Shown: positions 155 through 64,000, counted from the first letter of the stretch. The stretch is 64,000 bases of DNA from Kiritimatiellia bacterium (GCA_017527155.1 JAFXQI010000042.1:67600-131599); one strand, 5' to 3'. The notes: generated from the sequence alone by a model not told the origin. A program made the numbers and translations.

Positions 155-192
155 GGGTGGGACTCCTCGGGAGGGTTGGATGGGCCGGGAGT

Positions 193-1068
193 CTAGCGCA
201 TGGGGGCGGGCGGGGCGACAAAAAACGCCGCCCGCGCCGCCTCCCGGCGCAAGGCTTCCTGCTTCGGCGGCAGGTCGCCCGCTTGCAGGAAATCCGCCAG
301 CTCGCGGCGGAGGTTGTCCGCCAGCGCGTCGTCGAGGGGCTTGCCCGTGCCGCGCCCCGGATGCGGCAGGCGCCGCAGGCCCAGTGCGCCGTCCACGTGC
401 GCTTGCAGGCGGCGGAAGTTCCAGTGGGTCCGCAGGAGGCGCCTGAGGTGGCGTCGCGCCGCCGCGTGCTGCGTCCGCAGGGCCGGCGGAATCTCCGCGG
501 CGGCGGCGGCTTCCGCGCCCGGCAGCAGCCACTCCAGCGGGAGGCGTTCCTCCAGTTGCAGGAGGGCGCGGAGGTGGACGGCGAGGCGCATGTAGCGCAT
601 GAGGGTCGAGTAGTTCATGCCCACGCGGTTGTCCTCCAGCCAGCCGCGGACGCCGCGGCCGCGGCCGCAGATGCGCTGGGCGCCGGTCGGCGAGACGGCG
701 TAGCGGTTGCCGCGGTCGAGCGTCGGCGCAAGGTCCGCCAGACGCGACCCGATCCGCAGGCGCACCGCCAGCGTGCGCGGGCGCTCTGCCGCGTCGGCGG
801 CCAACTCTTCCGGCGTCGGGATGCCGCGCAGGGAGGGCGAGGGCGGGCGCGGCGCCCGCAGGTGCGCGCGGCGGCGCAGCTCGGCGAGGACGGCGCGCCC
901 CGCCGTGTCGGCAATCCAGCCGCCCAGCGCCGCCGCCGAGAGGGCCGCGACGCCCGCGAGGGCGGCGGGCGCGAGGATGGGCAGGGCCAGGGCGCCGACG
1001 TAGGCGCGGGTGATGTCGCCGGCGATGCCGGCGGCCTCGCGGAGGAGGTGTTTCGTCGTGTTTTTCAT
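193..1068 (-). CDS. Hypothetical membrane-anchored protein, paralog family copy 1 (N-terminal TM helix, Pro-rich linker, possible HTH-like segment)
   Basis: ORF 193..1104 (-). Start chosen at MKNTT (1068) because it is the start shared with the two paralogs at 17386..18255 and 47711..48571 (about 70 % aa identity). Alternatives are ATG 1080 or TTG 1104. The hydrophobic stretch [28 protein letters not shown] is a predicted TM helix. The conserved block [24 protein letters not shown]...[30 protein letters not shown] is shared. The antisense + ORF 157..1392 is R/Q-rich junk. Confidence 0.55.
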
Positions 1069-1130
1069 GGCGCGGAGCATGGGGGAGAACGGCCGGGATG
1101 TCAAGGATTTTTCCTATGTGCAAAAGTGGG
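1069..1130 (-). promoter_or_regulatory. Conserved upstream element of the paralog family, copy 1: TTGACA-N17-CATGCT-N7-ATG plus an upstream A-tract block
   Basis: In gene orientation the sequence reads CACTTTTGCACATAGGAAAAATCCTTGACA-TCCCGGCCGTTCTCCCC-CATGCT-CCGCGCC-ATG. The same architecture is found upstream of copy 2 (18256-18318) and copy 3 (48572-48632). Confidence 0.35.
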
Positions 1131-1169
1131 CTGGATCGGTGCGCGGAGGGGCGCGGCGAGAGCGGGGCG

Positions 1170-2471
1170 TCAGGCGGAGGCGAGGCGGCGGGCGAGGGCG
1201 GCGGCGAGGGAGGGGAAGTCGGGGGCGTCGGGGAAGAGGCCCGCGGCGGCGACTTCGTGGCCGGGGCCGCTGCGGCCGTGGGTGCCGCGGATGCGGGAGG
1301 TGTTCTGGGAGGTGTGCGGGGGCGGGAAGGCGAAGTGCAGTTCGCAGGGGTCGAAGCCGGGTTTGTTGTGGATGTCCATCTGGCTGGCGTAGTCGGGGGC
1401 CTGGCGGGGGGAGGTCCACCAGGGGTAGGCGAACCAGCGGCCGGGGGCGGCGATGAGGAGGAAGTCGCCGGAGCGGGGTTCGTGCAGGACCTCCAGGGTG
1501 CGCTGGGCGTCGGGGTCGAGGACGAGGTCGATGCCGTCGAGGTGCTCCAAAAGGCGGCGGACGGCAGGGCGGTCGGAGGGGGAGGGGACGTGGACGTGGG
1601 CGATCTGGTGGTCGACGATGGCGAAGGCGCGGGAGGTGTAGAAGTCGGGGTAGAGCATCCCGGCGACGGCGCGGGTATGGAAGAGTCCGGCGTCGCGGAG
1701 GGCGCGGTTGGGGAACACGGCGCCGTCGGGGAGGGTGACGGGCTCGATGGCGTAGTCGCCGGTGACGAGCCATTCGTAGCCGAGGGTGGCCGCGGCGTCG
1801 AGGAGGGGGTCGAGCTGGGCGAGGGCTTCGCGGAGGGCGGCGGCGGCCTGGGGGGAGTCGGGGCCGTGGCGCTGCTGGGCGTAGTCGAGGGAGGAGAGGT
1901 AGAGGAAAAGGTGGTCGGGGGAATCGGGACGGCGGAGGATTTCGGCGGCGGCGGCGGCTTCCCAGCGGCCGACGCGTTCGCCGGAGAGGGGGCCCCAGTA
2001 GCGGTAGAGGTCGAATTTGCGGCCGATGGCGCGGCAGAGGTCGGCGTAGAGGGGCTCGGGGCGGGTGTAGCAGTCCATGACGATGCCGCCGTGGTGGCGG
2101 TGGATCGGCTTGGGCGAGAGGAGGAGGTCGAGGCTTTCGCCGAGGCTCTGCTGCCAGAAGGCCATGCCCACGGTTTCGCCGCGGGCGCGGGCGGCGTCCC
2201 AGATTCGCGGTCCGCGGACGAGGGCGGCGGACTGTTCCCAGAAGTAGGGGCGGGCGAGGTCGCGGTGGTACCAGCCGGAGGCGACGACGCCGTGTCCGGC
2301 GGGCGGCAGGGCGGTGCGGAGGGTGGCCTGCGCGGGGCACGTCAGCGAGAGGGGTCCGGGGAGGATGGGGCGGAAGGGGATTTTGGTTTGCGGCTTGTGG
2401 CGCTCGATGAGGTTCCAGCCGAGGCCGGCGGCGACGACGACGAGGGTTTTGCGGGGGGCGGAGGCGGTCAT
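1170..2471 (-). CDS. Alkaline-phosphatase superfamily protein (type I phosphodiesterase / nucleotide pyrophosphatase-like)
   Basis: Start [20 protein letters not shown] at 2471 (residue 114 of ORF 1170..2810). The remainder has AP-superfamily character ([35 protein letters not shown]). The R/P-rich N-terminal extension of the ORF is discarded as non-coding. Confidence 0.55.
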
Positions 2472-2890
2472 GGTTCTTCGGTTTCCAGTATGGCGAGTTG
2501 GACGGGACGGAGGGTGGAGGCGGCGTCGCGGAGGGTCAGGAGGGTCCAGCGGCGGGGCGGGGGAGGCAGCGGGGGGCGGTCGGCGAGGCGGGAGACGGCG
2601 CGGGGAGGAGGGGGCGGCGGCACGAGGAGTTCGTCGCGGTCGATGCGCCAGGGGGAGGGGGCGTCGGTGGCGGTCTCGGCGGGACGGAGGCGGGCCTGGA
2701 CGTGGAGGGTGCGGAGGCGGAGGGTCTGGCCGCGGAGCGTTTCCGCGCGGCGCAGGGCGCGGGAGGACTGGAGGGTGGCGGTGGCGGCGACGCCGGCGAG
2801 CAGAACGCACAGGGCGAGCGCGCCGAGGACTTCGACGAGGGTGAAGCCGCGGGAGGCCGGGCGGGGAAATGGGGGGAGGGGCGAGGTCAT
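2468..2890 (-). CDS. Prepilin-type N-terminal cleavage/methylation domain protein (type II secretion pseudopilin / type IV pilin-like)
   Basis: Start MTSPLPPFPRPASRGFTLVEVLGALALCVLLAGVAATA at 2890. The G-F-T-L-V-E motif followed by a hydrophobic helix is the prepilin signature. The stop overlaps the ATG of the downstream AP-family gene (TGATG-type junction). Confidence 0.65.
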   Translation of the reverse strand: MTSPLPPFPRPASRGFTLVEVLGALALCVLLAGVAATATLQSSRALRRAETLRGQTLRLRTLHVQARLRPAETATDAPSPWRIDRDELLVPPPPPPRAVSRLADRPPLPPPPRRWTLLTLRDAASTLRPVQLAILETEEP

Positions 2891-3110
2891 CTTGCGTTGG
2901 GTGTCATTGTGCGGAAACGGGGCGGGACTGCAAGTGGGAAATGGGGGGAAGGAGCAGGAAAATCCATGGGAGGAGGATGGGGGTGGAAACAGGGGGATTT
3001 CAAGGAGTTTTCCTTGATATCGCAAGTGGTTGGAACGGGGCGGGGGAGAGGCGGGGGAGCGGAGGAGAAAGGCGTTGCGCGGAGGGGGGGAGGGGGATAG
3101 AGTGGAGGGC

Positions 3111-3602
3111 ATGAATGGCATGGATACGAACGTGGAAAGCGATGGGTTCTTTCCGGCAGGACGGACGGAGAGGATCGTGAGCCGGTCGGCGGAGGAGACG
3201 CGGGCGGTGGCGGCGCGGTTGGCGTCGGAATGCCCGGACGGGGCGCTGGTGTGCCTGCACGGGGACCTGGGTGCCGGCAAGACGTGCTTCGTGCAGGGGC
3301 TGGCGCGGGCGCTGGGCATCCGGCGTCCGGTGGGGAGCCCGACCTTCACGCTCGTCAACGAGTACCGGGGAACGCGGGGGCTGGCGCACATCGATCTGTA
3401 CCGGATCCGGGGGGCGGCGGACGCGTTCAGCCTGGGCTTGGAGGACTATCTCCAGCATTACCCGGGAATCGTCGCGATCGAGTGGGCGGAGAGGGCGCTG
3501 GATTTCCTGCCGGAAGATGCCTGGCACGTGCGATTGACGCCGGGCAAGGCGGAAGGGGAGCGGGTGGTGGAAATCGCGCGGCCGGGGCGGTCAAGGGGAT
3601 AG
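3111..3602 (+). CDS. tsaE: tRNA threonylcarbamoyladenosine biosynthesis ATPase TsaE
   Basis: MNGMD...LHGDLGAGKTCFVQGLARALGI...SPTFTLVNEY matches TsaE/YjeE (Walker A GDLGAGKT, SPTF motif). Start at M28 of ORF 3030..3602. Confidence 0.75.
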   Translation: MNGMDTNVESDGFFPAGRTERIVSRSAEETRAVAARLASECPDGALVCLHGDLGAGKTCFVQGLARALGIRRPVGSPTFTLVNEYRGTRGLAHIDLYRIRGAADAFSLGLEDYLQHYPGIVAIEWAERALDFLPEDAWHVRLTPGKAEGERVVEIARPGRSRG

Positions 3603-4283
3603 GGTTCCGTCCCGGAGGGTGAGGCGGAGGGCGGAGGAGGGGGCGTTCCAGGCGGGGTGGTGGGTGACGAGAAGGAGGGTGGTGCCGGCGCGGTTGAGGT
3701 CGGCGAAAAGGTCCATGGTGCGGGCGGCGGTATCGGGGTCGAGGTTGCCGGTGGGTTCGTCGGCGAGGAGGAGGGTCGGGGGATGGGCGATGGCGCGGGC
3801 GATGGCGACGCGCTGCATTTCGCCGGCGGACAGGAGATGCGCGGGCTGGCGGGCCTTGTGGGCGAGTCCGACGCGATCGAGGGCGGCCAGGGATTTCCGG
3901 CGGGCTTCGGCGGCGGGCGTGCCGAGATAGCGGAAGCGGAGTTCGACGTTGGCGAGGGCGGAGCGGCCGGGGACGAGGCAGAATTTCTGGAAGACGGTTC
4001 CGACGGCGGTCTTGCGGAGGGCGGTGCGGTCGCGGTCGGGGAGGGTCGAGACGTCGCGGCCGTCGAAGAGGAAGGTTCCGGCGTCGGGCGGGAGGAGGAG
4101 GCCGGCGACCATGAGGAAGGTGGTCTTGCCGGAGCCGGAGGGGCCGGTGACGACGGCATAGGCGCCGCGGGGGAGGGAGAGATCGATGCCGCGCAGGATT
4201 TCGACGTCGCGGCCGTCGGCGGCGCGGAAGCGCTTTTTCACGCCCTGCATGGAGAGGGCGGGGGTGTCGGCGGGGGGCGGCAT
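3591..4283 (-). CDS. ABC transporter ATP-binding protein (LolD/FtsE/MacB-type), no permease gene adjacent
   Basis: MPPPADTPALSMQGVKKRF...VTGPSGSGKTTFL...LSAGEMQRVAIARAI...LLLADEPTGNLD contains Walker A, the ABC signature and Walker B. The start ATG shares one base with the ruvC stop. Confidence 0.7.
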   Translation of the reverse strand: MPPPADTPALSMQGVKKRFRAADGRDVEILRGIDLSLPRGAYAVVTGPSGSGKTTFLMVAGLLLPPDAGTFLFDGRDVSTLPDRDRTALRKTAVGTVFQKFCLVPGRSALANVELRFRYLGTPAAEARRKSLAALDRVGLAHKARQPAHLLSAGEMQRVAIARAIAHPPTLLLADEPTGNLDPDTAARTMDLFADLNRAGTTLLLVTHHPAWNAPSSALRLTLRDGTLSP

Positions 4284-9040: not shown

Positions 9041-9959
9041 CTTCAACCTTCTCCTCTTCCGCTTCCGCATCGGCGCCCGCATCCGCGTCCACCGCCGGGG
9101 CTCCGTCCGCGAGCGGCAACGTGCCGGTTTCCGGCGCGGGGGCGGCGTTGAGCTTCTTGCGGCGCCGCAGGATGGCGGCCGTCTGCGGGTCCTCGGCCGG
9201 GGCCTCGTCCTCGGGCTTCGCGCCCTCGGGCGGGATGTCCCGGTGCTCGATGAAAATCTCCCCGTACGTCTCCGACTGCACCGCGCGCGCCTGCCGGAGG
9301 CGGATCAGCTCCAGCAGCGCCAGGAACGTGCACGCGATCTCGTTGCGCGAGCGCATCTTGTCGAGCATCCCCGACAGCGAGAACCGCCGCTCCCGGCGGA
9401 GCCGGAGCCCCAGCGACTCGATCTTGTCGGCGACCGTGTAGCGTTCGGCGAAGATTTCCCGGAGCTCCTCGTCCTTGACCTTCTTGAGCGCCTCGTTGAA
9501 CGCGTTGATCAGGTCGAACAGCCCCACGTCGTGGAGCGCCACCTCCGGCTCGCGGCCGAGGACCGCCTCCGTCCCCTCGCGGCCGAAGATGTCCTCCCGC
9601 CGCACCTCCAGCTCCTCCAGGTGGAGCGCCGCGTCCTTGAACTTCTTGTACTCGACCAGCTGCCGGACCAGATCCCACCGCGGATCCTCCTCCTCGGCCT
9701 CCTCCTCGGGCCGGACCTCGGCGGGCAGCAGCATCCGGCTCTTGATCATCATCAGCGTGGCGGCCATGACCAGGAACTCCCCCGCGACGTTGAGGTCGAG
9801 CCGCTTCATCATCTCGAGGTACTCGATGTACTGCCTGGTGACGCTCTCCATCGGGATGTTGCTGATGTCCAGCTCGTCCTTCTTGATGAGGTACAACAGC
9901 AGATCGAGAGGTCCCTCGAAGACCTCCAGCTTGACCTTGTATTCCTCGTTCCTGTCCAT
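9018..9959 (-). CDS. scpA: Segregation and condensation protein A
   Basis: Start MDRNEEYKVKLEVFEGPLDLLLYLIKKDELDI (M149 of ORF 9018..10403) is the ScpA signature. The 3' end overlaps the scpB start by about 22 nt. Confidence 0.75.
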   Translation of the reverse strand: MDRNEEYKVKLEVFEGPLDLLLYLIKKDELDISNIPMESVTRQYIEYLEMMKRLDLNVAGEFLVMAATLMMIKSRMLLPAEVRPEEEAEEEDPRWDLVRQLVEYKKFKDAALHLEELEVRREDIFGREGTEAVLGREPEVALHDVGLFDLINAFNEALKKVKDEELREIFAERYTVADKIESLGLRLRRERRFSLSGMLDKMRSRNEIACTFLALLELIRLRQARAVQSETYGEIFIEHRDIPPEGAKPEDEAPAEDPQTAAILRRRKKLNAAPAPETGTLPLADGAPAVDADAGADAEAEEEKVEDESDGNP

Positions 9960-10305
9960 GTGGGCGTTTGTCCGTTCAGTGGCAATCTTTTCCACTTTAC
10001 CCTCTCCCCCCGCCCGGGGCAACGCCAAACCCAACGCCAAACCCAACGTCGGCCTGCTCCTGCCTCCAGCGTCCCAGCCGTTGTCCGCGCAAGGTTCCGC
10101 CCCCGGAACAGGCACCACCGGGGTTTTCCCGCTTCGGCCCTGTCCGCATCCGGAGGCTTGTACATGGCGGAGATGCGCCCGCGGAGGACCGGAACGGAGG
10201 TCCGGCACGCGCAAAAACGGTTGACATGGAAGGGAAATGGGGGATGATGGCCGGTGTTCTTGCCGAGCAAGCGGCAACCAAACCAAACAAGGAGTGAAAC
10301 AATCC

Positions 10306-17280: not shown

Positions 17281-17385
17281 GGTATGCCTCGTTTCTGTTG
17301 AATCGGGAAACAATTCCACGCATTGTGCGCGAACGGAAGGAAATGGCCAGCACAAAATGACATGCGAAGCCTGGCCGCAGCCGGC

Positions 17386-18255
17386 CTACAGTCCGGGAGG
17401 CAATCCCGGCCCGGGCGGCAGGAACCCCGTCAGCACCTCTGTCCTCAATGCCTCCAGCTTCGGCGGCAGGTCGCGCGCCTGCAGGAAATCCACCAGCTCG
17501 CGGCGGGCGTTTTCCAGCATTACTTCGTCGGGCGGCTTCCCTCCGGCGCCCCCCGGACGCGGCAGGCGCCGCAGGCCCAGCGCGTCGTTCACGTGCGATT
17601 GCAGGCGGGTGAAATTCCAGTGCGCCCGCATCAGGCGCGAGAGGCGGCGTTTCGCCGCCGCGTATTGCGCCTGCAACACCGGGGGAACCGCTGCGGAAGC
17701 CTCCTCGCCGGGCAGCAACCATTCCAGCGGAAGCCGTTCGTCCAGGGCCAGAAGGGCGCGGAGGCGGACGGCGAGGCGCATGTAGCGCATGAGGGTCGAG
17801 TAGTTCATCCCGATGCGGTTGTCGGCCAGCCAGCCCCGGACGCCGCGGCCACGGCCCCGGATGCGTTTTGCGCCCGAAGGAGAGATATCGTAGAGGTTGC
17901 TGCGGTCGAGCGTCGGCGCCAGGTCCGCCAGGCGCGACCCGATCCGCAGGCGCACCGCGAGCGTGCGGGGCCGTACCGCCGCGTCGTCGGCGAACTCCTC
18001 CGGCGTCGGCGTCCCGCGCAGCGACGGCGAGGGCGGCCGCGGCACACGGAGACGGGTCCGGCGGCGCAGCTCGGAGAGGATGGCCTGTCCGCTGTCGGCC
18101 AGCCAGCTGCCGAGGGCGGCCGCCGAGAGCGCGGCGATCCCCGCGACGGCGACGGGCAGGACCACGGGCAGGGCAAGAGGCAGGGCGTAGGCGCGGGCGA
18201 CGTCGCCGGCAATCCCGGCGGCCTCGCGGAGGGTGTATTTGACCGTGTTGTTCAT
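17386..18255 (-). CDS. Hypothetical membrane-anchored protein, paralog family copy 2
   Basis: Start [23 protein letters not shown] (M61 of ORF 17386..18435). About 70 % identity to copies 1 and 3. The stop lies 105 nt upstream of dapA. Confidence 0.55.
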   Translation of the reverse strand: MNNTVKYTLREAAGIAGDVARAYALPLALPVVLPVAVAGIAALSAAALGSWLADSGQAILSELRRRTRLRVPRPPSPSLRGTPTPEEFADDAAVRPRTLAVRLRIGSRLADLAPTLDRSNLYDISPSGAKRIRGRGRGVRGWLADNRIGMNYSTLMRYMRLAVRLRALLALDERLPLEWLLPGEEASAAVPPVLQAQYAAAKRRLSRLMRAHWNFTRLQSHVNDALGLRRLPRPGGAGGKPPDEVMLENARRELVDFLQARDLPPKLEALRTEVLTGFLPPGPGLPPGL

Positions 18256-18318
18256 GGGCGGGAGCATGACGGTTGGGCTTGTGGAAGTCAAGTGTTTTTC
18301 CTGTTTCCAAAAGTGGCA
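18256..18318 (-). promoter_or_regulatory. Conserved upstream element of the paralog family, copy 2
   Basis: Gene orientation reads ...CACTTTTGGAAACAGGAAAAACACTTGACT-TCCACAAGCCCAACCGT-CATGCT-CCCGCCC-ATG. Spacing is the same as in copies 1 and 3. Confidence 0.35.
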
Positions 18319-18449
18319 GCGGTCCCGGGGAGTGAGGAGTGAATGGGAGGGGAAGAGGGGACTCTGGCGGTGAGGGCGGGGATGACGATGGAAGGGGGTG
18401 TTCCGCGGCGGGCGGGGCGGGCTGGACTTTTGCACGGGGGGGTGGCAAG

Positions 18450-24701: not shown

Positions 24702-24783
24702 GCCGGAGTGGCGGAATGGCAGACGCAGCAGACTCAAAATCTGCCGCCCTCTGGGCGTAAGGGTTCAAGTCCCTTCTCCGGTA
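24702..24783 (+). tRNA. tRNA-Leu (anticodon CAA)
   Basis: Hand fold: acceptor GCCGGAG/CTCCGGT, anticodon stem gcaga/tctgc with loop cTCAAaa, a long variable arm cgccctctgggcgt (class II), T-arm aaggg-ttcaagt-ccctt. CCA is not encoded. Confidence 0.8.
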
Positions 24784-24798
24784 CACTTCGGGCGACGC

Positions 24799-24889
24799 GG
24801 AGAGGTGCCAGAGTGGCCTATCGGGCACGCCTGGAGAGCGTGAGTGCTCCAAAAGGGCACCGTGGGTTCAAATCCCACCCTCTCCGCCA
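24799..24889 (+). tRNA. tRNA-Ser (anticodon GGA)
   Basis: Acceptor GGAGAGG/CCTCTCC, anticodon stem cacgc/gcgtg with loop cTGGAga, a long variable arm, T-arm gtggg-ttcaaat-cccac, discriminator G, CCA encoded. Confidence 0.8.
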
Positions 24890-44140: not shown

Positions 44141-44217
<77 letters not shown>

Positions 44218-44315: not shown

Positions 44316-46142
44316 ATGGTGCATATAGAAGCCATGAGCGAGTCGGACATCCATGACAGGCGGGCGAATGCGGTTGCCGGCGGCATCGTGGCGCCCGGTG
44401 TGTGCCTCTGGGGACGATACGAAGTGGTCGATCCCCTGGGGGAGGGCGTCCTGGGCCGCCTGTGGGTCTGCCGCGACCTGCAGGATGACGGCGCCCCCGT
44501 GGTGCTGCGCTGGCTGCCGCCGGACGTACGGAGGTCGCGGGCCCTGCTCGCCGTCCTGCACGAGAACATCCGCAAGCTCGCGGACAGCACGCATCCGAAC
44601 GTGGCGCCGGTGCGCCAGATGGTGTACGCGGGGAACGAAGTCTTCCTCCTGGGCGACTACGCGCCCGGCGTCCCCCTCTCCGAATGGGCCGAGGGGCTGG
44701 AAGCGGAACGCGGCGGGCGGCGGCCGTCCCTCGGCGAACTGCTGCCGGTGCTCGAGCAGGCCGCCGATGCCCTGGACTACGTGCACGCCCGCGATGCGGC
44801 ACACGGGAACCTGACGCCGGCGAACGTGTTCGTGGACGGGGACGGGGCGGTGCGGGTGACGGACTTCGGGCTCGCGTTCGGCCGCCACACGTCCGTACGG
44901 CGCGCGGAGGATGCATCCGGCGGCGGCGCGGAGGCGGAGGCCCTCGCGACCGCGTTCCGGGCCCCGGAACAGCGCGCCGGATCGGGTGCGGACTCGGCCG
45001 CCGACCAGTACTCGCTGGCGGCGCTCGCGTGCTGGACGATGACCGGCCACGCCACCCCCGCGGATGCCGACTGGGCGGCCTGGCCGCCGAATGCGCGGGC
45101 GGCATTCCGCCGGGCACTGCATCCGAAGCCGGGCAAGCGGTTCGTGTCGTGTTTCGACTTCGTGCGGGCGTTGCGCGGGGAACGCGTCGGGGGGCGGCGC
45201 AAGGGATCGGCCGAGGCGCGCCGGAAGGCGCAGCGCTTCGCGGGGATCGCCGCGGGCGTGGTCGCGCTGGTCGCCCTGGGCGCCGGTGCGGTGCTGGGCA
45301 TCGCACGGGCCCTCAACGGCCGCTCCATCGTGGAGGCGGTGACGGCGGAGCGCCCCGAGGCGGCGGAAACGCCCGTGACCTACGCGGCGCGAAACACGCA
45401 GCCGGTCAAGCCGCTGGTGGCGGAGACGCCGCTGCCGACGGAAGGCAAGCCGTGGGTGGCGTCCACGGTGCCGATGCAGTTCGTGTGGGTGTTCGAGATG
45501 CAGATGTGGATCGGGCGGTTCGAGGTCACCAACGAGGAATACCTCGAGATGAACCCGAACCACGAAAGCGGCCGCTTCGTCAGCCCGAAAGGTTCGATGG
45601 CGGTGTCGCTGGAAGGGAAGAACCATCCGGTCGTGGGCGTGAATTTCGCGGAAGCCTACCGCTACGCGCGGTGGCTGACGGAGCGCGAGCGCGAGGCCGG
45701 GAAGCTGCCGGAGGGCTGGGCGTACCGCCTGCCGTCCGCGGCGGAAGCGGAGGCCTACATCCGGGCCGGCACGGACGCGGAGTACCCGTGGGGCGACGAG
45801 CTGCCGCCGGTGCGCGGCAACTACGCGGACGACACGCTCGCGGCCGTCTTTTCCGACATGCCGGTCATCGAAGGCTACCGCGACGGCGCCATCTGCACCG
45901 CCGAGGTCCAGGAAAGCGGCGAGAACGCGTGGGGCCTCTTCGGCGCGAACGGCAACGTGTGGGAAACCGCCTCGCGCGGGCCGGGCGACTCCCATTTCGG
46001 TGGCTGGTTCGGCGGAGCGTGGGACGACTGGCAACCGAGCCGGCTCCGCGCCGATGCCCGCTACGGTTTCCGCGGCGACGCCCACGGCATGGTCAACGGC
46101 TTCCGGCTCGTGCTCGCGCCGGTTGCCGCCCCGCACGAGTGA
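44316..46142 (+). CDS. Ser/Thr protein kinase-like domain (predicted pseudokinase) fused to a formylglycine-generating-enzyme (FGE/SUMF1)-like domain that lacks the catalytic cysteines
   Basis: Start MVHIEAMSE (M29 of ORF 44232..46142; alternative 44334). The kinase fold retains the Gly loop LGEGVLG, DFG (VTDFGLA) and APE (FRAPEQ). The beta3 Lys is replaced by Arg (VVLRWL) and HRD by HGN (HGNLTPAN). The C-terminal FGE fold (GKNHPVVGVNFAEAYRYARWLTERE...GFRLV) has no Cys pair. A TM helix (GIAAGVVALVALGAGAVLGIA) separates the two domains. Confidence 0.6.
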   Translation: MVHIEAMSESDIHDRRANAVAGGIVAPGVCLWGRYEVVDPLGEGVLGRLWVCRDLQDDGAPVVLRWLPPDVRRSRALLAVLHENIRKLADSTHPNVAPVRQMVYAGNEVFLLGDYAPGVPLSEWAEGLEAERGGRRPSLGELLPVLEQAADALDYVHARDAAHGNLTPANVFVDGDGAVRVTDFGLAFGRHTSVRRAEDASGGGAEAEALATAFRAPEQRAGSGADSAADQYSLAALACWTMTGHATPADADWAAWPPNARAAFRRALHPKPGKRFVSCFDFVRALRGERVGGRRKGSAEARRKAQRFAGIAAGVVALVALGAGAVLGIARALNGRSIVEAVTAERPEAAETPVTYAARNTQPVKPLVAETPLPTEGKPWVASTVPMQFVWVFEMQMWIGRFEVTNEEYLEMNPNHESGRFVSPKGSMAVSLEGKNHPVVGVNFAEAYRYARWLTEREREAGKLPEGWAYRLPSAAEAEAYIRAGTDAEYPWGDELPPVRGNYADDTLAAVFSDMPVIEGYRDGAICTAEVQESGENAWGLFGANGNVWETASRGPGDSHFGGWFGGAWDDWQPSRLRADARYGFRGDAHGMVNGFRLVLAPVAAPHE

Positions 46143-46265
46143 GGAACACCCGCACGGCGGGGTGGGGGGAGGGACAACGGCAAGCCCCGCCTTTTCCGGC
46201 GGGGCTTGAGTTCAAGCATGCAAGGGTTTCTCCATGCCATGTTCGGCATGGTGTGCGGTTCGATG

Positions 46266-47576
46266 TCAGCGGCCGATGCGTTCGACGACGAGGGGCTCGG
46301 CGGGGGCCGGGGCGTCGGCGATGGCGAAAGCGTCGCGGACGTAGGCGAGGGCCTGGTCGAGCTTGCCCGGGTCGTTGGCGTGGATGGTCGCGAGACGGTC
46401 GCCCTTGGATACGGTCTGGCCGACCTTCGCGAGGTTGGAGAGGCCGACGGCGAAGTCGATGCCGTCGTCGGTCTTCTGGCGGCCGCCTCCGAGGACGAGG
46501 GAGGCGCGGCCGATTCCGTCGGCGTCGACGCGGGCGAGGATGCCGGAGGCGGGGGCGACGTAGTCGTGCACGATGGAGGCCGTGGGGAGCTTGGAGAAGT
46601 CGTCGAGGGCGGAGGGATCGCCGCCCTGGAGGGCGGTCATCTTCTTGAAGCATTCGAAGGCGGCGCCGGAACGGAGCAGGCCGAGCAGGATGTCGTTGGC
46701 TTCGGCTTCGGAGGAGGCCTTCCCGGCGAGCTGGAGCATCTCGGCGGTCAGGCGGAGCGTCACCTGCATGAGGTCGCCGTCGAGGTGCTGCCCTTGCAGG
46801 CATTCCATGGACTCGATGATTTCCAGCGAGTTGCCGACGGCCTGGCCGAGGGGCTGGTTCATGGAGGTGATGAAGGCGGTGATGTTCTTGCCCATCGCTT
46901 CGCCGACGCGGACCATCGACTCGGCGAGCTCGCGGGCGGCGGCGACGGACTTCATGAAGGCGCCGGTGCCCCATTTGACGTCGAGGACGAGCGAGTCGAT
47001 GCCCTCGGCGAGCTTCTTGCACATGATGGAGGCGGTGATGAGCGGGATGGAGGGGACGGTGGCGGTGACGTCGCGCAGGGCGTAGAGCTTCTTGTCGGCG
47101 GGGGCGACGTCGCCGGTCTGGCCCATCATGGAGAAGCCGCAGGCCTGGATGATCTCGATGAAGCGCTTCTCGGTGAGGTCGGTGCGGAAGCCGGGGATGG
47201 ACGCGAGCTTGTCGAGCGTGCCGCCGGTGATGCCGAGACCGCGGCCGGAAATCATGGGCACGGCGACGCCCGCGGCGGCGGCGAGGGGGGCGAGGACGAT
47301 GGAAACCTTGTCGCCGATGCCGCCGGTGGAATGCTTGTCCACCTTGGGGAGGGAGATGGCGGACGTGTCGATGACGTCGCCGGTGTGGAGCATGGTGTCG
47401 GTGAGGGCGGCGATTTCGGCGGGGGTCATGCCCTTGAAGTAGATGGCCATCGCCATGGCGGCCATCTGGTAGTCGGGGATGCGGCCGGCGGTGTAGCCTT
47501 GGATGAAGTCGCGGATTTCGTCCGCTTCGAGAACCTGGCCGTCGCGTTTCTTTTCGATGATCCATTGGGGTACCAT
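46266..47576 (-). CDS. deoA: Thymidine (pyrimidine-nucleoside) phosphorylase
   Basis: Start MVPQWIIEKKRDGQVL (M23 of ORF 46266..47642). The motifs DKHSTGGIGDK and ISGRGLGITGGTLDKL are present over 437 aa. Confidence 0.8.
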   Translation of the reverse strand: MVPQWIIEKKRDGQVLEADEIRDFIQGYTAGRIPDYQMAAMAMAIYFKGMTPAEIAALTDTMLHTGDVIDTSAISLPKVDKHSTGGIGDKVSIVLAPLAAAAGVAVPMISGRGLGITGGTLDKLASIPGFRTDLTEKRFIEIIQACGFSMMGQTGDVAPADKKLYALRDVTATVPSIPLITASIMCKKLAEGIDSLVLDVKWGTGAFMKSVAAARELAESMVRVGEAMGKNITAFITSMNQPLGQAVGNSLEIIESMECLQGQHLDGDLMQVTLRLTAEMLQLAGKASSEAEANDILLGLLRSGAAFECFKKMTALQGGDPSALDDFSKLPTASIVHDYVAPASGILARVDADGIGRASLVLGGGRQKTDDGIDFAVGLSNLAKVGQTVSKGDRLATIHANDPGKLDQALAYVRDAFAIADAPAPAEPLVVERIGR

Positions 47577-47710
47577 GGGAATGTCCTTTCGTAGTGGGTT
47601 GCCGATGGCCCGGATTGTGCCGCAAGGGGTGGGGAAAAGCAAGCCCGATGGAAGGGCGGGCGCAGCCCGAAAACGTCAGGGCGCGGACGGGTATGGCGTG
47701 GGGGCGTGTT

Positions 47711-48571
47711 TCACGGAAGAACCGTACCGCTCGCCCATCCGGCCAGCGCCTCCCGGCGCAGTGCTTCCAGTTTCGGGGGCAGGTCGCCGGCCTGCACGAA
47801 ATCCGCCAGCTCGCGGCGGGTGTTCTCCGCCAAGGTCTCGTCTAGGGGCTTGCCTCCGCCGCGTCCCGGACGCGGCAGGCGCCGCACCCCCAGCGCCCCG
47901 TCCACATGCGATTGCAGGCGGCTGAAGTTCCAGTGTGCCCTGAGCAGGCGCGCGAGGCGGCGTCGGGCCGCCGCGCAATGCGCCTGCAACGCCTCCGGCA
48001 CGGCCGCGGAAGCCTCCGCGCCCGGCAGCAACCATTCCAGCGGCAGCCGTTCGTCCAGACCCAGTAGCGCGCGGAGGCGGACGGCGAGACGCATGTAGCG
48101 CATGAGGGTCGAGTAGTTCATTCCGACGCGGTTGTCCTCCAGCCAGCCCCGGACGCCGCGGCCGCGGCCGCGGATGCGCTTTGCGCCCGTCGGCGAGATG
48201 TCGTAGTGGTTGCCGCGGTCGAGCGTCGGTGCCAGGTCCGCCAAGCGCGACCCGATCCGCAGGCGCACCGTCAGGGTCCGCGGGCGCACCGCCGCATCGG
48301 AGGCGAATTCCTCCGGCGTCGGCGTCCCGCGCAGGGAGGGCGATGGCGGGCGCGGCGCCCTCAGACGCGTCCGGCGGCGCAATTCGGAGAGGATGGCGCG
48401 TCCGGTGGCTCCGGCAATCCAGCTGCCGAGGGCCGCCGCCGAGAGGGCCGCGACACCGGCGAGGGCGGCGGGGACGAGGACGGGGAGGGCCAGGGAGCCG
48501 ACGTAGAACCGGGCGGTGTCGCCGGCGATGCCGGCAGCCTCCCGGAGAGCGTATTTGCAGGTGTTGTTCAT
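47711..48571 (-). CDS. Hypothetical membrane-anchored protein, paralog family copy 3
   Basis: Start [23 protein letters not shown] (M28 of ORF 47711..48652). About 70 % identity to copies 1 and 2. The stop lies 135 nt upstream of deoA. Confidence 0.55.
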   Translation of the reverse strand: MNNTCKYALREAAGIAGDTARFYVGSLALPVLVPAALAGVAALSAAALGSWIAGATGRAILSELRRRTRLRAPRPPSPSLRGTPTPEEFASDAAVRPRTLTVRLRIGSRLADLAPTLDRGNHYDISPTGAKRIRGRGRGVRGWLEDNRVGMNYSTLMRYMRLAVRLRALLGLDERLPLEWLLPGAEASAAVPEALQAHCAAARRRLARLLRAHWNFSRLQSHVDGALGVRRLPRPGRGGGKPLDETLAENTRRELADFVQAGDLPPKLEALRREALAGWASGTVLP

Positions 48572-48632
48572 GGGCGGGAGCTTGGGGAAGGGACGGTGGA
48601 AAGTCAAGGATTTTTCCTGTGTGCAAACGTGA
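48572..48632 (-). promoter_or_regulatory. Conserved upstream element of the paralog family, copy 3
   Basis: Gene orientation reads CACGTTTGCACACAGGAAAAATCCTTGACT-TTCCACCGTCCCTTCCC-CAAGCT-CCCGCCC-ATG. Confidence 0.35.
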
Positions 48633-55685: not shown

Positions 55686-58600
55686 CTAGGGGGTGGGGCA
55701 GGTGGCGCGGAGGTGGTAGAAGGTGGCGGGGGTGGAATTGGTGTCGAAGTACATGGAGACGGGGGGGGTGTTGGTGATTGCGAACTGGGAGGTGGATGCG
55801 GGCAGGAGAAGGTTGGTGGTGAAGGAGAGCTGGTAGGTGACGCCGGTGGCGGAGGGCCAGGAGAGGAGGGTGCCGGTGGAGTCGGCTTCGGCGTCGAGAC
55901 GGAAGAAGGACGCGCCGTCGTTGGGGTCGGTGCCGAGGTGGTATTCTTCGAGGTTGGTGAAGCCGTCGGCGTCGGGGTCGAGGTTGGGGTTGCAGGCGGT
56001 GGCGCCGCCGAAGTGGGCGATGGCCCACCAGTCGGGGATGCCGTCGGAGTCGGTGTCGAGGCGGCGGATGGCGTTGGTGAAGGTGACGGAGGCGGTGCCG
56101 AGGGTGTTGGAGGCGATGAAGGTGAAGACGTTGGTGGCGGGATAGCTGGAGTTGATTTCGAGATAGCCGGTGCCGACGTCGAAGGAGTAGGTGTATTCGT
56201 CGGCGACGGTGTGCGCGGCGTCGAGGGTGATCAGGGGGTATTCGCCGGAGACGTATTGGTAGAGGTTCAGGATGGGCGCGGCGTCGAGGTCGACGAGAAG
56301 GTCGCCGAGGGGCTGCCAGGCGGGGGCGTTGCCGGCGGTGACGGTGACGTCCTGTTCGATGCTTCCGGCGGCGTTTTCGGCGCGGAAGGTGAAGGTGTAG
56401 GCCCCGGCGGCGGGGGCTTCGAAGATGAAGATGTCTTCGGCGATGGCATAGGCGGAGTCGTCGATTTCGTCGCCGGTGCGGGAGTCGAAGGTCCCGACGA
56501 GGGTGACGGCGGGGGACGGAAAGCCGGTGACCTGGCTCTTGAGGTCGATGGTGATTTCGCCGCCGACGCCGGTGGTGTAGGCGGTTTCGCCGGTCCAGGC
56601 GGGGGCGGTCTGGTTGGCGTCGAAGAAGTCGAGGATCTTCTTCATGAGGGTGTTGCGGCGGGTGGCGTCGGTGATGGTCTCGAAGGGGAAGCCGGCGACG
56701 ACGGTGCGGCAGACGGAGTTGGAGCAGGCGATGATGGCGCCGTTGGTGCCGGAGGTGCCGCCGTAGGTGGCGGCGACGAAGGCTTCGCCGACGGGGGCGA
56801 GGGTGTCGGGGTAGTTGGCGGCGTAGATGTCGGGGAGGTTGTTGGTGTAGTTGAAGTCGGCGCGGGTGCCGGAGAGGAAGGTGCCGCTCTTGCCGCTGAC
56901 GATGGCGCTGCCGCCGTCGTCGGCGACGTAGGTGCAGTGGAGGTAGTTGGTCATGAAGGCCTTGTCGGAGTCGGAGCCCTTGGCGGAGAGGTCCCAGCCG
57001 ATTTCGGAGCCGGAGACGAAGAGGGCGCCGCCGTTGTCGAGGAAGGCGGCAAGGCGCTGCTGTTCGTCGTAGGTGAAGGTTTCGTCGGCGGTGGATTCTT
57101 CTCCGAGGCACCAGACGACCTTGGGGTAGCGGGCGAGGTCGGAGGAGGTGACGCGGGAGGCGTCCATGTAGTCGAAGGAGCGTCCGGCGGCGGCGATGGC
57201 GTTGCCGTGTTCCTTGACGTAGTCGAAGGAGTTGATCATGCGCGGGCGGACGAGGGTGACGTTGCCCTTGAGGTTGTTGGCGAAGTAGCGGGTCGGGGAC
57301 TGGGCGCCGTCGTTGCGCTTGAAGCCGTCGACGACGAGGACGTCGGCGGTGGAGCCGTCGGAGGAGAGCCCGGCGCCGGCGACGGGCGAGGAGAGGGATT
57401 CGCCGCCGAGGTTGGTGGCGCAGACGCGGAAATAATATGGGTTCCCGGCGGGGAGGTCGGTGAATTTGTGGGCGTATTCGTCGGCGGGGGAGGTGATGGC
57501 GACGGGGTTGCCGAAGGCGTAGCCGTTGGTGGAGACGTAGATGACGAAGCCGGTGTGGGGGTCGGACATGCGGTTGGTGCCGTGGGGCATCTGCCAGGAG
57601 ACGGTGACGCAGTTGGGGCCGGAGTTGGTGGCGGCGACGGCGACGGGGGCGTCGGGGGCGCAGATTTCGCGGACGGTGAGGGTGGAGTCGGTGGCGTAGC
57701 GGGTGACGAAGTGGCGCAGGATGCCGCGCAGGGCGGAGCGGGCGAGCCATTCGCGGCCGGTGGGGGACTTCATGATGGCGGCGTCGAGTTCCTTGTCGTG
57801 GAAGGCGACTTCGGCGATGGTGTTGTCCATCTTGGTCCAGATGGAGCCGCCGTAGATTTCGCCGTAGTGGGAGCCGAGGGTGCGCGCGCAGTCCTGCTGC
57901 CAGGCGGTGGCGACGAGGCCGTGGGCGTGGGCGGCGGTCATGTTGCTGACGATGGAGTTGGCGATGCAGCGGGCGAGGTTGGTCTGTCCGGCGAGGTAGG
58001 AGCCGGTGACGCGGGTGTCGTAGAGGCCCATGCAACCGCGCTGGGAGCCGGAGGCGTTGGAGTGGAAGGAGAGGTACAGGCGGCGCCAGCGCGGCCAGTC
58101 GTTGGTGCGGCACATGGCGTAGGCCATGCGGTTGGGGGCGGAGACGTTGTCGTCCTGGTCGTAGCTGGCGGTGGAGTTGTAGATGGAGTCGGGGAGGCCC
58201 TGGGAGTCGAGGACCATGCGCTGGGTCCAGTAGCGGGCGCCTTCGAGTTCGCGCTCGTAGCCGGATTTGCCGGCGGTGCCGCGCGAGATGTCGCCCATGC
58301 CGTTGCCGAAGCGGACGGCGTCGGCGATGACGGTGCCGTCGTCGAAGCCGGGGGCGAAGTTGGAGATGTTGACGCAGCCGTTGGTGCCGGCGTCGAACCA
58401 GTAGTTGCCGAGCCAGACCCATCCGTTGCCGACCTGGCGGTGGTCGACGCGGACGTCGGTGACGCCGCCGGCGTGGTGGACACGGTAGAGCTGCGGGACG
58501 CGGTCGGAGCCGGGACGCGCCCAGACGTAGACGGGGTATTCGCCGGCCGCGGGAAGGGACGGGCGGAAGGAGGCCCAGGCGGTGGTGCCGGTGGCGCAGA

Positions 58601-61600
58601 TGTTGGCCCAGCGGTAGCCGACTTCGCCGGCCTTGCCGTGGTAGTAGTCGGTCTGGGACGTGTTGCCCCAGTTGCCGCCGTAGGTGACGCGCGAGGCGAG
58701 GGAGGCGGCGGTGTCGACGTTGTCGATGACGACTTCGTTGGTCTGGTAGCCGAGCGGGCGCATGGGGACGACGGTGGCGCCGGCCTTCCACGCCTGCAGG
58801 GCGAAGTAGTTGAGCTGGTCGATCGTCCCCATGTCCTCGACCATGCCGTAGGTGATGCCGCGTCCGGCCGCCCAGGCGTTGGTCTGGCCGTTGGCGGTGA
58901 AGCCGTGGCCCGCGGCGACGTAGAGGACGATGCCGGAAAGCGCCCCGTGCGGCTGCTCGGCGGTGGAGGTGCCGAAGGGGGACCAGGAGTCGGCGTCGGG
59001 TTCCTCGGGGGCCGTGGAGGTGCCCTCGATGGTCAGGCGGCGCCACTGGATGGACCCCGCCGTGCCGGAGTTGCTGGCGCAGAAGATGACGCCGTGCTCG
59101 CCGCCGTCGAGCGCGGGGGAGAAGGAGAAGGTGTTGGTGTAGGTCTGCTTCAGGGGCGTGGCGCAGACGCCGACGGGGGAGAAGCTGGCGCCGCCGTTGG
59201 TGGAGGCGTAGAGGGTGGCCTGGCGGGTGTCCGCGGCGGAGGCGGGGCGGAAGAGGGTGGTCACCTGCGTGACGACGCCGGCGAAGGCCGGGGTGGTGGC
59301 CCAGGAATTGGTGGGTTTGTAGAGGTAGACGTAGCCGGTGTCTCCGCTCGTCTCGTCCGTGGGCCGGACGTAGCAATTGCCGAGGTTCCACGCGTGGTTG
59401 TTGACGTTGGTTTCGCCGCTGTAGAGGGCGTCGTCGCACAAGGACCAGCCTTCGGGGACGGTGAAGTCCCATGTGGTCGATACGGGCGTGATTTCGGTGG
59501 AGGGTTCGTCGCCGCCGGTCTCCTCGGTGGTGGTGGCGGTGGTCTCGACCCAGACGGAGCGGGTGTTCTCGGTGAGGGCCTGGACGCGGATCCAATATGG
59601 GGTTTCGGGGGAGAGGCCTTCGATGGTGTCGGAGGGGGAGGTGACGGTCTTGGGATAGCCTTCGGGGCGGTTGGCGTCGCAGTAGCGGCCGGTGGTGCCG
59701 GAGAAGGAGAGTTTGATGTTCTTGAGGCCCGCGCCGCGGAGGGAGCCGGAGGTGGAGTCGGCGTGGCGTTCGGCGTAGGGGGCGACGATCTTCACGGCGA
59801 GGGTTTCGCCGTCGAGATAGGGGAGGTCGTAGGACTGTGCGGACCAGTCTTCGTCGTCGGTGGAGGCGGCGCGGCACTCGCCGAGGAAGTTCCAGGGGCC
59901 TTGGTCGAGGCGGTAGTAGACGCGGAGGACGGAGCAGGTGATGCCGACGGTGGATTTGGCGGCATTCCACGGGCAGTTGGAGAAGGAGAGGTTCGCGCTG
60001 GTCGCCCCGTAGAGCGGGAAATCCCACGATTGGAGAGCCTGTCCGGGATGGCCGGCCAGGTAGTGTCCCGCATATTTGGCCGTGGAGCAGTAGCCGGGGC
60101 CTGCGCCGAGGTTGCTGGAGGTCGTGACGGTGCGGACGGTGCCGGTGTAGCACCAGGACTGGCCGGTGAGGAACTGGTTCGTCCCGAGGGAGGCCGACGG
60201 GCAGGTGGCGGTCCAGTTGGTGTAGGGGCCGCTGGCGACGTCGACCTGGTAGGCGGCGGCGCCAGGGGCGGCGGTCCAGGAGAGGGCGATGTTGGTGGCG
60301 GCGGGCTCGGCGGCGAGGCCGGAGGGTACCATGCCGGGGGTGACCGTCACGATGTCGGACCAGTTCGTGGAGGAGGCGTTGCGGACGCGCAGGCTGACGG
60401 GCGAGGAGAGGCCGGTGAGGTTGGTCGCGCAGGTGTCGGCGAGGGGGGTTCCGGTGGCGGCGACCCAGTTGGTGGTCGTGCCGGTGGCAACGAAGGAGTG
60501 GAGCAGGACCGTCGTGGGCTCCCCGGTCGTCACGTTTTCGAAGCGGAAAACGGTTCCGCCGGGATTGGAGATGGAACAGGCCGTGGCGTAGTCGAGGATG
60601 GCCGAGACGTTGGAGCAGGCGTAGGTGCCGACCGTGGTGAAGCCGGTGCTCCCGGCGGGGGCGGCCAGGACGCGGAGTTTGCGGCCTTCGTAGTTCGACG
60701 CGGCGGCGGCGCGAACGCGGACGGCCAGCTGCGTGACAGTGCCGGAAACGGGCGGCGTCTGGATGTAGGAATTGGAGTACGTCAGGTAAACGTAGCCGGG
60801 GTCCTGGTAGTTGGTGATGCCGGGGCGGAGTTCCAGCTTGCCGCGGAGCCCCCAGGCGCTGCCGGCCACGTTGACGGTGGTGGGCGTGGTCGTGGTGACG
60901 TTGTTCGTCACCCAGCCCTCGGCGGAGGAGAACGAATTGGAGAAGACGAGCGGCACGTCCTCCCACCAGCCGTCCGCGAGCCCTTCGGGCGTGGGGGCGG
61001 ACTGGACGACGTAGCCGGCGGGATCCACGACGGCGGGGGTCCAGGAGAAGAGCGCGGAGGAGGCGCCGATGCCCGTGGCGCGGGCGTCGGGGGCGCTGGC
61101 GCCGGAGCCGCCGCCGGAGCCGCCGCCGGAGTAGGTGTCGAACTTCTCGCCGAGGAGTTCCCACAGCTCCTCCGCTTCCGGCGCGTGGGTCAGGCACCAG
61201 ATGCCGACGCCGCCGAGGCCCTTGGACTTCGCGTAGTCGTACTTGAGGCCGAGCGATTCCGCGTCGTCGTAGAAACACTGGTAGGCGTTGGTGCCGGACT
61301 TGTACGCGTAGTACGGGACGGACCCGTTCGAGTCCCATTGGCGCCCGTGGTTTTCGGCGGCGGCGACCGCGTTGGGGTATGTCACGGCGGCCGAGTAGGA
61401 CGAGCCGCAGGACTTCGAGCCGATGCTGGTGGTGGCGGACTTCCAGCGGCGGCCGTAGTAGGGCACCGCCAGCATGAGGTGGGCGGCGTTGGTCATCTTG
61501 TTGAGATAATAGCGGGTCGAATAGTCCACGCTGCACCAGGAGGATGCCCCCTGCCACTGTGCCGACGAATAGAGCGGCGCGACGGGCCCGGGCGTGGCGG

Positions 61601-62444: not shown

Positions 62445-62651
62445 GCTTTCGATTTTACCCCCACGCGCGCGCGGAGGAAAGCCGAAAAAGCGGGGAGGAA
62501 TGGAGCGGAGGGCATCCCGCTTTGTGCAAGGTGCAAGCCCGGAAGCGGAGAGGGAGGACGGGGGAAAACTCCGATTGGTCCGATGGCCCGGGATGCGGGA
62601 GAAACGCGCGAAGCCGGCGGTTCCAGCGGGGAATGGGGGGCTTCCTCTTTT

Positions 62652-62848
62652 CCTGCAGCTTTCCGGACGTTTTTCCACCACAAGGTCGCGCGGAAGCGCG
62701 ACCCTCCCGGTGCGTTCTCCAGGGGGAGGGACGCGCTTCTGCGCGTCCGCGGGGGAAACCGGACGTTTTTCCACCACAAGGTCGCGCGGAAGCGCGACCC
62801 TCCCGGTGCGTTCTCCACGGGGAGGGACGCGCTTCTGCGCGTCCGCGG
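62652..62848 (+). repeat. GC-rich multi-hairpin interspersed element, two tandem copies (D and E)
   Basis: Two consecutive units of about 98 bp lie immediately upstream of the giant gene's start. Each is ccaccacaaggtcgcgcggaagcgcgaccctcccggtgcgttctcca(g/c)ggggagggacgcgcttctgcgcgtccgc. The 204-aa ORF 62441..63055 (-) with a duplicated peptide is their translation artefact. Confidence 0.6.
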
Positions 62849-63940: not shown

Positions 63941-64000
63941 GACGTCGCGGCGCCAGTGGAGGTGGTGGAAGAGGCTGGCTTCGACGGGGAGGACGCCGAG

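Follow-up and report, generated by a model that had tools for sequence, protein, structure and literature searches.

A membrane-anchored, putatively DNA-binding protein family amplified as promoter-plus-ORF units in rumen Kiritimatiellae

The DNA analysed here, hereafter the window, is a stretch of 64,000 nucleotides (nt) with about 70 % G+C from a Kiritimatiellia bacterium (GCA_017527155.1 JAFXQI010000042.1:67600-131599), which carries three paralogous minus-strand genes for proteins of about 290 amino acids (aa). These genes belong to an orphan, lineage-specifically amplified gene family with a helix-turn-helix (HTH)-like fold. It is proposed that each copy would be an autonomous cassette of ~0.95 kb, in which a promoter block of ~62 nt is followed by the open reading frame (ORF), and that this cassette, formerly or slowly mobile, encodes a membrane-tethered, probably DNA-binding product kept for a host or an element function; we give this proposal about an even chance of being correct. 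According to it, the product would be a single-pass membrane protein, anchored N-terminally and with a basic cytoplasmic domain, whose most likely activity would be to bind nucleic acid, probably DNA, on the cytoplasmic side of the membrane, as a putative membrane-tethered regulator or DNA-membrane tether. Within a narrow clade of rumen Kiritimatiellae, each genome would have come to hold ~40 intact copies, the family spreading as a discrete promoter-plus-ORF unit inserted into intergenic DNA, in either orientation and in lineage-specific bursts. The reading as an inserted unit is favoured because the copies are many and dispersed, have sharp ends and random orientation, lie in intergenic DNA and have expanded in lineage-specific bursts. 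The genes in the window are the following:

193..1068, minus strand: coding sequence of copy 1, 291 aa, 38 nt upstream of purA; score of 425 with the family hidden Markov model (HMM); identical to database protein P0001
17386..18255, minus strand: coding sequence of copy 2, 289 aa; dapA-dapB-folK follows after 105 nt, and gspD is divergent
47711..48571, minus strand: coding sequence of copy 3, 286 aa; preceded by an electron transfer flavoprotein (ETF)-ubiquinone oxidoreductase gene and followed, after 134 nt, by deoA

An initial annotation of this DNA had described three minus-strand paralogs of about 70 % aa identity, and both the ORFs and the alignment agree with it: the motifs that it quoted are all found, pairwise identity among the three copies amounts to 72-81 %, and the family HMM matches nothing else in the window. 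Its gaps and its co-orientation with purA, dapA and deoA also hold for these copies, the distance to deoA being 134 instead of 135 nt. purA was named by its N-terminus, and dapA-dapB-folK and deoA by the Pfam labels on identical loci.

The plus-strand ORFs 157..1392, 17323..18342 and 47706..48098 had been put forward as alternative coding sequences. The minus frame is, however, the coding one, because substitutions pile up at its third positions (27/19/60, 24/13/49 and 19/15/54 at codon positions 1/2/3 of the conserved core in the three pairs), its G+C at third positions (GC3) is high, 0.86-0.93, and the ratio of non-synonymous to synonymous substitution rates (dN/dS) between the window copies is 0.28-0.46. 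The G+C contents of the three positions, about 0.77/0.57/0.89, follow the order GC3 > GC1 > GC2 that fits genes of a 70 % GC genome, and the first codon position of the plus-strand ORF 157..1392 is the third of the minus frame, that is, the most variable and most GC-rich one. The idea that the minus-strand ORFs are not genes, and that the plus-strand ORFs, or none, are real, takes its support from the long antisense ORFs that do exist (157..1392, 17323..18342). It is refuted by the third-position excess and the GC order, present only in the minus frame, by dN/dS values below 1, by an AlphaFold2 (AF2) model with a predicted local distance difference test score (pLDDT) of 95, and by hundreds of homologs that keep the minus frame down to 25 % identity; its probability is negligible.

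Database searches yielded 292 relatives, all of them unnamed or 'hypothetical' and all from Kiritimatiellae metagenome-assembled genomes (MAGs) of ruminant gut samples, and the core of the protein is held by 249 representative clusters at 50 % identity. A scan of species-representative genomes gave 80 loci, 79 of which come from two rumen Kiritimatiellae MAGs, RUG11196 (41) and RGIG6903 (38). Nearly all the MAG copies are full-length and intact, being 40-86 % identical to the window copies, and many contigs break off inside a family gene, as expected for a repeat. No family gene was found at 80 deoA loci from metagenomes and other taxa, among them relatives with DeoA 66-89 % identical, which indicates that the high copy number is confined to a narrow clade. 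The suggestion of a lineage-specific family is sustained. Values of dN/dS across the copies (0.10-0.51) indicate, at the level of sequence, purifying selection on all of them.

Similarity at the DNA level delimits the repeated unit. In the window copies it begins ~60 nt 5' of each ATG and fades 30-50 nt short of the stop codon; across the family, it sets in sharply ~62 nt before the ATG and dies away at the stop codon, the sequences on either side of the duplicated unit being unrelated. The similarity of copy 1 to paralogs in other genomes begins at 1127-1134. The corresponding promoter blocks are located as follows:

1069..1130, minus strand: promoter block of copy 1, with an AT-rich upstream element CACTTTTGCACATAGGAAAAATCC, a -35 hexamer TTGACA (1104..1099), a 17-nt spacer, the hexamer CATGCT (1081..1076) and 7 nt to the ATG, without Shine-Dalgarno (SD) sequence
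18256..18315, minus strand: promoter block of copy 2, -35 hexamer TTGACT (18291..18286)
48572..48632, minus strand: promoter block of copy 3, -35 hexamer TTGACT (48607..48602)

The three window copies share these blocks, which are also conserved at 49 family loci, including copies whose proteins are just ~40 % identical, and promoter and start codon are arranged alike in distant relatives. The 62-nt block consists of an AT-rich stretch (TTTTGCAnnCAnGAAAA or GAGATTACnGAAAA), the -35 hexamer TTGAC[AT], a spacer, a -10-like hexamer CA[TC]NCT and, 7-9 nt further on, the ATG; in the 49 loci the spacer measures 17 nt in 31 of the 33 promoters scored, and the ATG lies 36-38 nt from the -35. The exact motif GAAAANNNNTTGAC was found at the three window copies only. 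An SD-like motif precedes the family ATG at just one of the 49 loci; SD sites before purA, dapA and deoA read GAGGAG, GAGG and AAGGA, respectively. From these features we infer a strong sigma-70-type promoter with an UP-element-like upstream half, which we take to resemble the UP consensus. The mRNA would most likely be leaderless, since the ATG follows the -10-like hexamer by 7-9 nt without an SD sequence. The conserved promoter of deoA itself has CACAAT or CACACT at this point, and CACACT is among the commonest variants of the family promoters.

As regards the ends of the unit, no consistent inverted repeats were found around the three copies of the window, and when ten recent paralogs were aligned, their ends showed neither a terminal inverted repeat nor a target-site duplication. 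No hairpin is conserved at the 3' end, those after the stop codon being heterogeneous, and Rfam and tRNA scans gave nothing adjoining the copies. The small mobile cassette suggested by the initial annotation stands as far as the repeated unit is exactly promoter plus ORF, although the inverted repeats, target duplications and transposase domain of such an element are lacking.

That annotation had also seen in the position of the copies, each before and co-directional with a housekeeping gene, a possible regulatory or sensor module. To place the neighbours, a codon-usage gene caller validated on loci with known gene calls was applied to the 80 loci, and the orientation counts were the same with an earlier GC3-based caller, which missed many genes:

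Downstream neighbours of family genes: 39 co-directional, 30 convergent
Upstream neighbours of family genes: 28 co-directional, 35 divergent

Family genes and their neighbours are co-oriented in 67 of 132 cases (51 %), compared with 118 of 154 (77 %) for the other adjacent pairs of the same loci (p = 1.5e-10), and the orientation of the family genes relative to their neighbours is random. Moreover, the neighbours are functionally unrelated, comprising purA, dapA, deoA, lgt, a HAD hydrolase gene, miaB and genes for a GH2 enzyme and an amino-acid permease. The DNA between copy 3 and its downstream gene also contains a feature of its own:

47577..47645, minus strand: promoter and SD region of deoA itself, between copy 3 and deoA and outside the cassette; 97 % identical in locus L103, where there is no family gene

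The location of all three window copies before housekeeping genes is thus attributable to chance, since orientation is random, the downstream genes have their own SD sites and deoA has its own promoter, and chance is favoured by the large share of 'housekeeping' genes, which are the majority in any bacterium. Placement before co-directional housekeeping genes is, then, no property of the family. On the proposed cassette model, the copies before purA, dapA and deoA would have arrived there by the chance of insertion, and any effect on those genes would be one of read-through, with no dedicated regulatory link. Such read-through from a strong promoter may occur, because no convincing terminator follows the copies: no terminator-like site was found between copy 1 or copy 3 and the next gene, and two weak candidates follow copy 2.

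It is quite improbable, in contrast, that the genes are regulatory or sensor modules placed before housekeeping operons and co-transcribed with them. Such a module would agree with the short gaps and co-directionality of the three window copies and of close relatives before lgt and a HAD hydrolase gene, as well as with the lack of a strong terminator in those gaps. However, downstream neighbours are co-directional in only 39 of 69 cases, under the 77 % baseline, and their functions have nothing in common. A dedicated module is further contradicted by the SD sites of the downstream genes and by the deoA promoter, kept at 97 % identity where the family gene is absent. The sensor role fares no better, a conventional sensor being unlikely because, in the predicted topology, at most ~25 residues of the protein lie outside the membrane.

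The spacing on the 5' side was also recorded at the 80 loci. Where the gene upstream points the same way, a median of 103 nt separates its stop codon from the ATG of the family gene, with 19 of 28 cases at 89-122 nt, which puts the 5' end of the cassette ~35-40 nt past the preceding stop codon; copy 1, with a gap of 101 nt, fits this spacing.

In each genome, some copies form close groups of their own. Among ten copies of RGIG6903, identity to the nearest in-group relative is mostly ~87-96 %, and to the best RUG11196 match 60-65 %; one RUG11196 group shows the reverse pattern, pointing to lineage-specific bursts. For comparison, housekeeping flanks are ~92 % identical between RUG11196 and RGIG6903, and ~96-97 % between the window and RUG11196. 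The only pair at 100 % identity, L041 and L068, has its flank in common and represents a redundant contig.

Shared flanks carry orthologous copies at three loci (L007/L008, L066/L076 and L073/L080), whereas at five loci or more they carry a different paralog, the opposite orientation (e.g. L019 vs L067) or a different spacing. Furthermore, the flanks of four MAG family loci map to window positions without a copy, as in window position 10209 vs L033. The insertion of the unit is deduced from the orientation statistics and the sharp boundaries, and was not directly observed. The synteny breaks may in part be due to chimeric MAG contigs.

The case of copy 2 bears on a different explanation, in which ancient dispersed paralogs stay at fixed positions and gene conversion keeps them alike, the apparent bursts being homogenisation without any mobility. 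Paralogs within a genome are indeed often more alike than the copies beside the same flank in the sister genome, the similarity boundaries coincide with the functional unit, as homology-limited conversion predicts, and positions are stable within the species. Nevertheless, neighbour-relative orientation is random, and a shared flank may hold a copy in opposite orientation or none (the L019/L067 and 10209/L033 cases above). As for copy 2, its RUG11196 ortholog L011 is 88 % identical at the aa level, with flanks ~96-98 % identical in nt; the two genes differ at 6.8 % of nt, against ~2.4-3.8 % in the flanks, and the changes are scattered single substitutions, many of them unique to one lineage, with no tracts matching other paralogs, which argues against large conversion tracts. 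We consider this explanation unlikely.

A second possibility is that of a new kind of insertion sequence (IS), still active, with the protein itself being the recombinase or transposase that moves the promoter-plus-ORF unit. It would account for the ~40 dispersed copies per genome, the sharp unit boundaries, the random orientation in intergenic DNA, the bursts, the frequent breakage of contigs within the gene, and the shared flanks where another paralog, the opposite orientation or no copy is seen. It has to be set against this that neither terminal inverted repeats nor target-site duplications were found, nor end hairpins that are conserved, that no transposase or recombinase domain was recognised by Pfam, NCBIfam or PHROGs in the three copies, nor as a recurrent Pfam family in 124 diverse members, and that the protein is membrane-anchored. 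The synteny breaks, as said, could partly be MAG chimeras. A classical active IS is a poor fit, since the copies are old, diverged, intact and fixed in the species, without recognisable ends or catalytic domain and with a membrane anchor. An active element of this kind thus appears doubtful.

Some facts weigh against the formerly or slowly mobile cassette too, and the first two of them also tell against an active IS. The best within-genome pairs are 93-97 % identical in aa, so that near-identical copies are missing and even the closest paralogs differ at a synonymous divergence (dS) of at least 0.11. Throughout the contigs examined, the window copies are fixed in the species: copy 3 is present in 10 of 10 contigs scanned, among 24 encoding an identical DeoA, and copy 2 in 6 of 6, among 10 encoding an identical DapA, which means that any mobility must be old or very slow. 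No clean pair of empty and filled sites was recovered, because the sequence on the other side differs too: in the 80 metagenome deoA loci synteny is lost on both sides and no precise insertion site is definable, and a local alignment of window 9700-10215 with the family region of L033 gave a chance-level score. The copy counts come from fragmented MAGs, and the topology of the product has a hydropathy window and the positive-inside rule as its sole basis. Finally, the -10-like hexamer is weak by the E. coli consensus, matching TATAAT at three of six positions, and a generic consensus promoter scanner calls nothing.

A bolder version of the cassette proposal, which we hold to be unlikely, would see here a new class of self-propagating bacterial gene: a minimal promoter-plus-ORF unit without inverted repeats or known transposase fold, whose HTH-like, membrane-anchored product might mediate its own dispersal or recruit a host pathway, and which would have colonised ~1 % of the genome in a clade of rumen Kiritimatiellae.

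In relation to these rearrangements, two further alignments were noted. Window 46265-47645 and L103 (LXOW01235474.1) share deoA plus 69 nt of promoter region at 97 % identity, with both flanks unrelated, and window 10209-12902 matches L033 (RUG11196) at 96.9 %, the match having its exact start at a promoter (AAAACGGTTGACATGG…). The reshuffling between these close genomes seems to involve entire transcription units as blocks, unless the contigs are chimeric. A tRNA-Leu/tRNA-Ser pair at window 24702-24889 likewise lies between two blocks, which adjoin family genes and a palindrome array in L056, and are ~0.9 kb away from them in L016 (RGIG6903 and RUG11196).

The protein itself gave no significant match for the three copies in Pfam, NCBIfam, PHROGs or PADLOC, nor in a PDB sequence search with two profiles, in agreement with the first impression that no known family could be assigned. 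Phage_Bbp19, matched on an Arg-rich stretch (E 0.002-0.016), is an example of hits under the cut-off, and the PADLOC anti-phage defence models gave none even at E <= 1. A Pfam scan of 10, and then of 124, diverse members found no recurrent family and no domain fusions, so that fusions offer no functional hint; likewise, no description of the family was found in the full-text literature. The features of the product, given for copy 3, are these:

48410..48508, minus strand: predicted single membrane-spanning segment with Arg-rich juxtamembrane stretch, residues 22-54; 19-residue Kyte-Doolittle maximum of 2.09; low-confidence helices in AF2
47867..48349, minus strand: conserved globular core, residues 75-235, with the linker SPSLRGTPTP; AF2 pLDDT 95.1 and predicted template modelling score (pTM) 0.87; the sole region common with distant relatives
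48062..48157, minus strand: HTH-like motif, residues 139-170, with the helix VRGWLEDN, a 6-residue turn and a long helix with the invariant Tyr153, according to the secondary structure of the model

The single N-terminal transmembrane anchor noted earlier is supported by one hydrophobic segment, which scores 2.0-2.3 on the 19-residue Kyte-Doolittle window and is followed by the Arg-rich stretch, an arrangement that recurs in most of the distant relatives checked. In the alignment of the window copies, net charge is ~0 before the segment and ~+6 within the 25 residues after it, and other members have +3 to +6 within 20 residues. The whole protein has an isoelectric point (pI) of ~11.4 and 14 % Arg, and the residues that follow the anchor add up to a net charge of +18. 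This C-terminal part, of ~230 residues and extremely basic, is most likely cytoplasmic, given the positive-inside rule and the positive charge that follows the segment.

The segment could alternatively be an export signal or signal anchor, the basic domain then acting outside the cytoplasm as an envelope or surface protein. Its N-terminal position would suit this, as would an evolution faster than that of the flanks (the 6.8 % of copy 2 and L011 against ~2.4-3.8 %). The distribution of charge, neutral before and positive after the segment, is nevertheless the wrong one; the segment, which starts near residue 22, has neither the n-region nor the cleavage motif typical of a signal peptide; and such a pI and Arg content would be unusual for an exported domain. 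Export is therefore regarded as improbable, and the cytoplasmic location of the basic part is preferred.

Distant relatives, of 250-470 aa, have in common only a core of ~120 residues, PTP..W....LRfGSmLxDLExxVDxS....G.IvGRxPGvKGWLxxNxP...YsTvMRYKxlAxkLRQ, in which R136, G139 and Y153 are invariant in 124 sequences. Neither a name nor a taxonomy for these relatives came out of look-ups of their clusters. The AF2 model of the core, from a 76-sequence alignment, has two helices, a beta-hairpin, a short helix, a 6-residue turn, a long helix and three more helices, which makes the core an alpha/beta domain of a kind not described before, with an HTH-like pair of helices. Foldseek found no match for the model in the PDB (best E 0.7), and structural similarity to HTH domains of the ParB/KorB/DnaA type is weak and sub-threshold. 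The recognition helix of sigma-70 region 4 or resolvase type that had been suspected is not supported: the model does contain an HTH-like helix pair, but the Pfam models of both types gave no match at E <= 1 in the three copies or the 124 members, and the pair did not superpose on either structure. From the model, HTH identity of the pair is plausible.

When compared with known systems, the family shows partial likenesses. It recalls IS110 and IS200/IS605-type insertion sequences, which lack terminal inverted repeats, in its single ORF of ~1 kb with tens of dispersed, intergenic copies in either orientation, its promoter at the extreme left end, its lineage-specific bursts and the broken metagenome assemblies. 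It differs from them in lacking a DEDD, HUH or serine catalytic domain and any Pfam or PHROG match, in that no end hairpins or conserved target sequence were found, and in its old and diverged (40-97 % aa) but wholly intact copies and membrane-anchored protein. With ToxR, CadC and TcpP it shares one transmembrane helix tethering a DNA-binding-like domain to the inner face of the membrane, although the order is reversed (anchor N-terminal, domain C-terminal), there is neither an OmpR-type winged helix (no PF00486 match) nor a periplasmic sensor domain (<=~25 residues outside), and the paralogs number ~40 instead of one or a few.

Noc also joins DNA to the membrane via its N-terminus. The family, however, has no sequence similarity to ParB, KorB, Noc or domain IV of DnaA, shows a beta-hairpin before the helix pair and a 6-residue turn, and lacks the N-terminal CTPase domain of ParB. 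Finally, DUF3102-type HTH proteins of phages and plasmids presumably bear a local likeness, W-L-x-x-N ... S-x-x-T-x-x-R-Y-M-x-L-A (GWLEDN ... in the family, with a helix before it). Pfam does not support it, with no DUF3102 match in any of the 124 members at E <= 1, and context and architecture differ (membrane anchor, beta-hairpin).

To our knowledge, outside insertion sequences bacteria seldom keep tens of intact, dispersed and diverged paralogs of one gene, and the amplification and random-orientation statistics found here are unusual for a gene that is not a transposase. The family combines a distribution like that of mobile DNA with purifying selection on every copy, yet it has no confidently related solved structure and no known hallmark of transposition. 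Should the products bind DNA at the membrane, ~40 paralogs could represent a large unrecognised regulatory or chromosome-tethering layer in an abundant uncultured rumen lineage; should the gene drive its own spread, it would be a new type of mobile element. In practical terms, metagenome assemblies break at family genes, which also mark points where synteny is lost in these genomes, and the compact consensus promoter of the family with a predicted leaderless start may serve as a ready expression signal for a phylum without genetic tools.

Several other features were observed. With a model trained on neighbouring genes, family genes (L001:5001-5891, L004:5001-5885, L087:2506-3363 and L097:2514-3392, the window copies included) reach codon-usage log-likelihoods of 32-84 per ~290 codons, whereas neighbouring genes about as long score 100-300; in codon or amino-acid usage, the family genes depart from the rest of the genome.

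An AT-rich perfect palindrome, TTTTCCAA-N3-TTGGAAAA, forms intergenic arrays of 2-7 units with a period of ~22-31 nt in Kiritimatiellae genomes of 65-70 % GC. Such arrays occur in 24 of the 80 family loci (e.g. L024:3303-3460, L066:1021-1180, L086:1337-1495, L010:4111-4265 and L054:1799-1975) and at the deoA loci L105, L112, L115, L116, L126, L129 and L137, with none in the window. Those downstream of some copies were considered as element ends and rejected, since arrays also lie far from family genes and in genomes without the family, which makes them a general repeat of the repetitive extragenic palindromic (REP) type or a protein-binding array. In some family promoters, the upstream half (TTTTGCAATCACGnGAAA) is similar to one palindrome unit. 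In L019, at ~4010-4090 and ~180-260 nt past the family stop codon, a lone family-type promoter with the first five codons (…TTTGCAATCACGGAAAACATTGGCATTTCC…CCCCCATGAAAACCCCGCGCG) runs into a palindrome array, and looks like the remnant of a deleted family copy.

Elsewhere in the window, a tRNA-Arg(TCT) gene at 44141-44217 is followed at 44316-46142, on the plus strand, by a gene with Ser/Thr protein kinase and FGE-sulfatase domains (Pfam labels on the identical locus L087), convergent with deoA. On the minus strand, the product of 2468-3391 has a prepilin-type N-terminal motif, GFTLVEVLGALALCVLLAG, at about residue 190 of the listed ORF, and the type II secretion genes gspD and gspE lie at ~18.3-22 kb. 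Lastly, the minus-strand region 55686-63998 is a single ORF whose GC signature is of the coding type; with over 2,770 codons, it extends to within 2 bases of the end of the window and is probably the gene of a giant protein.

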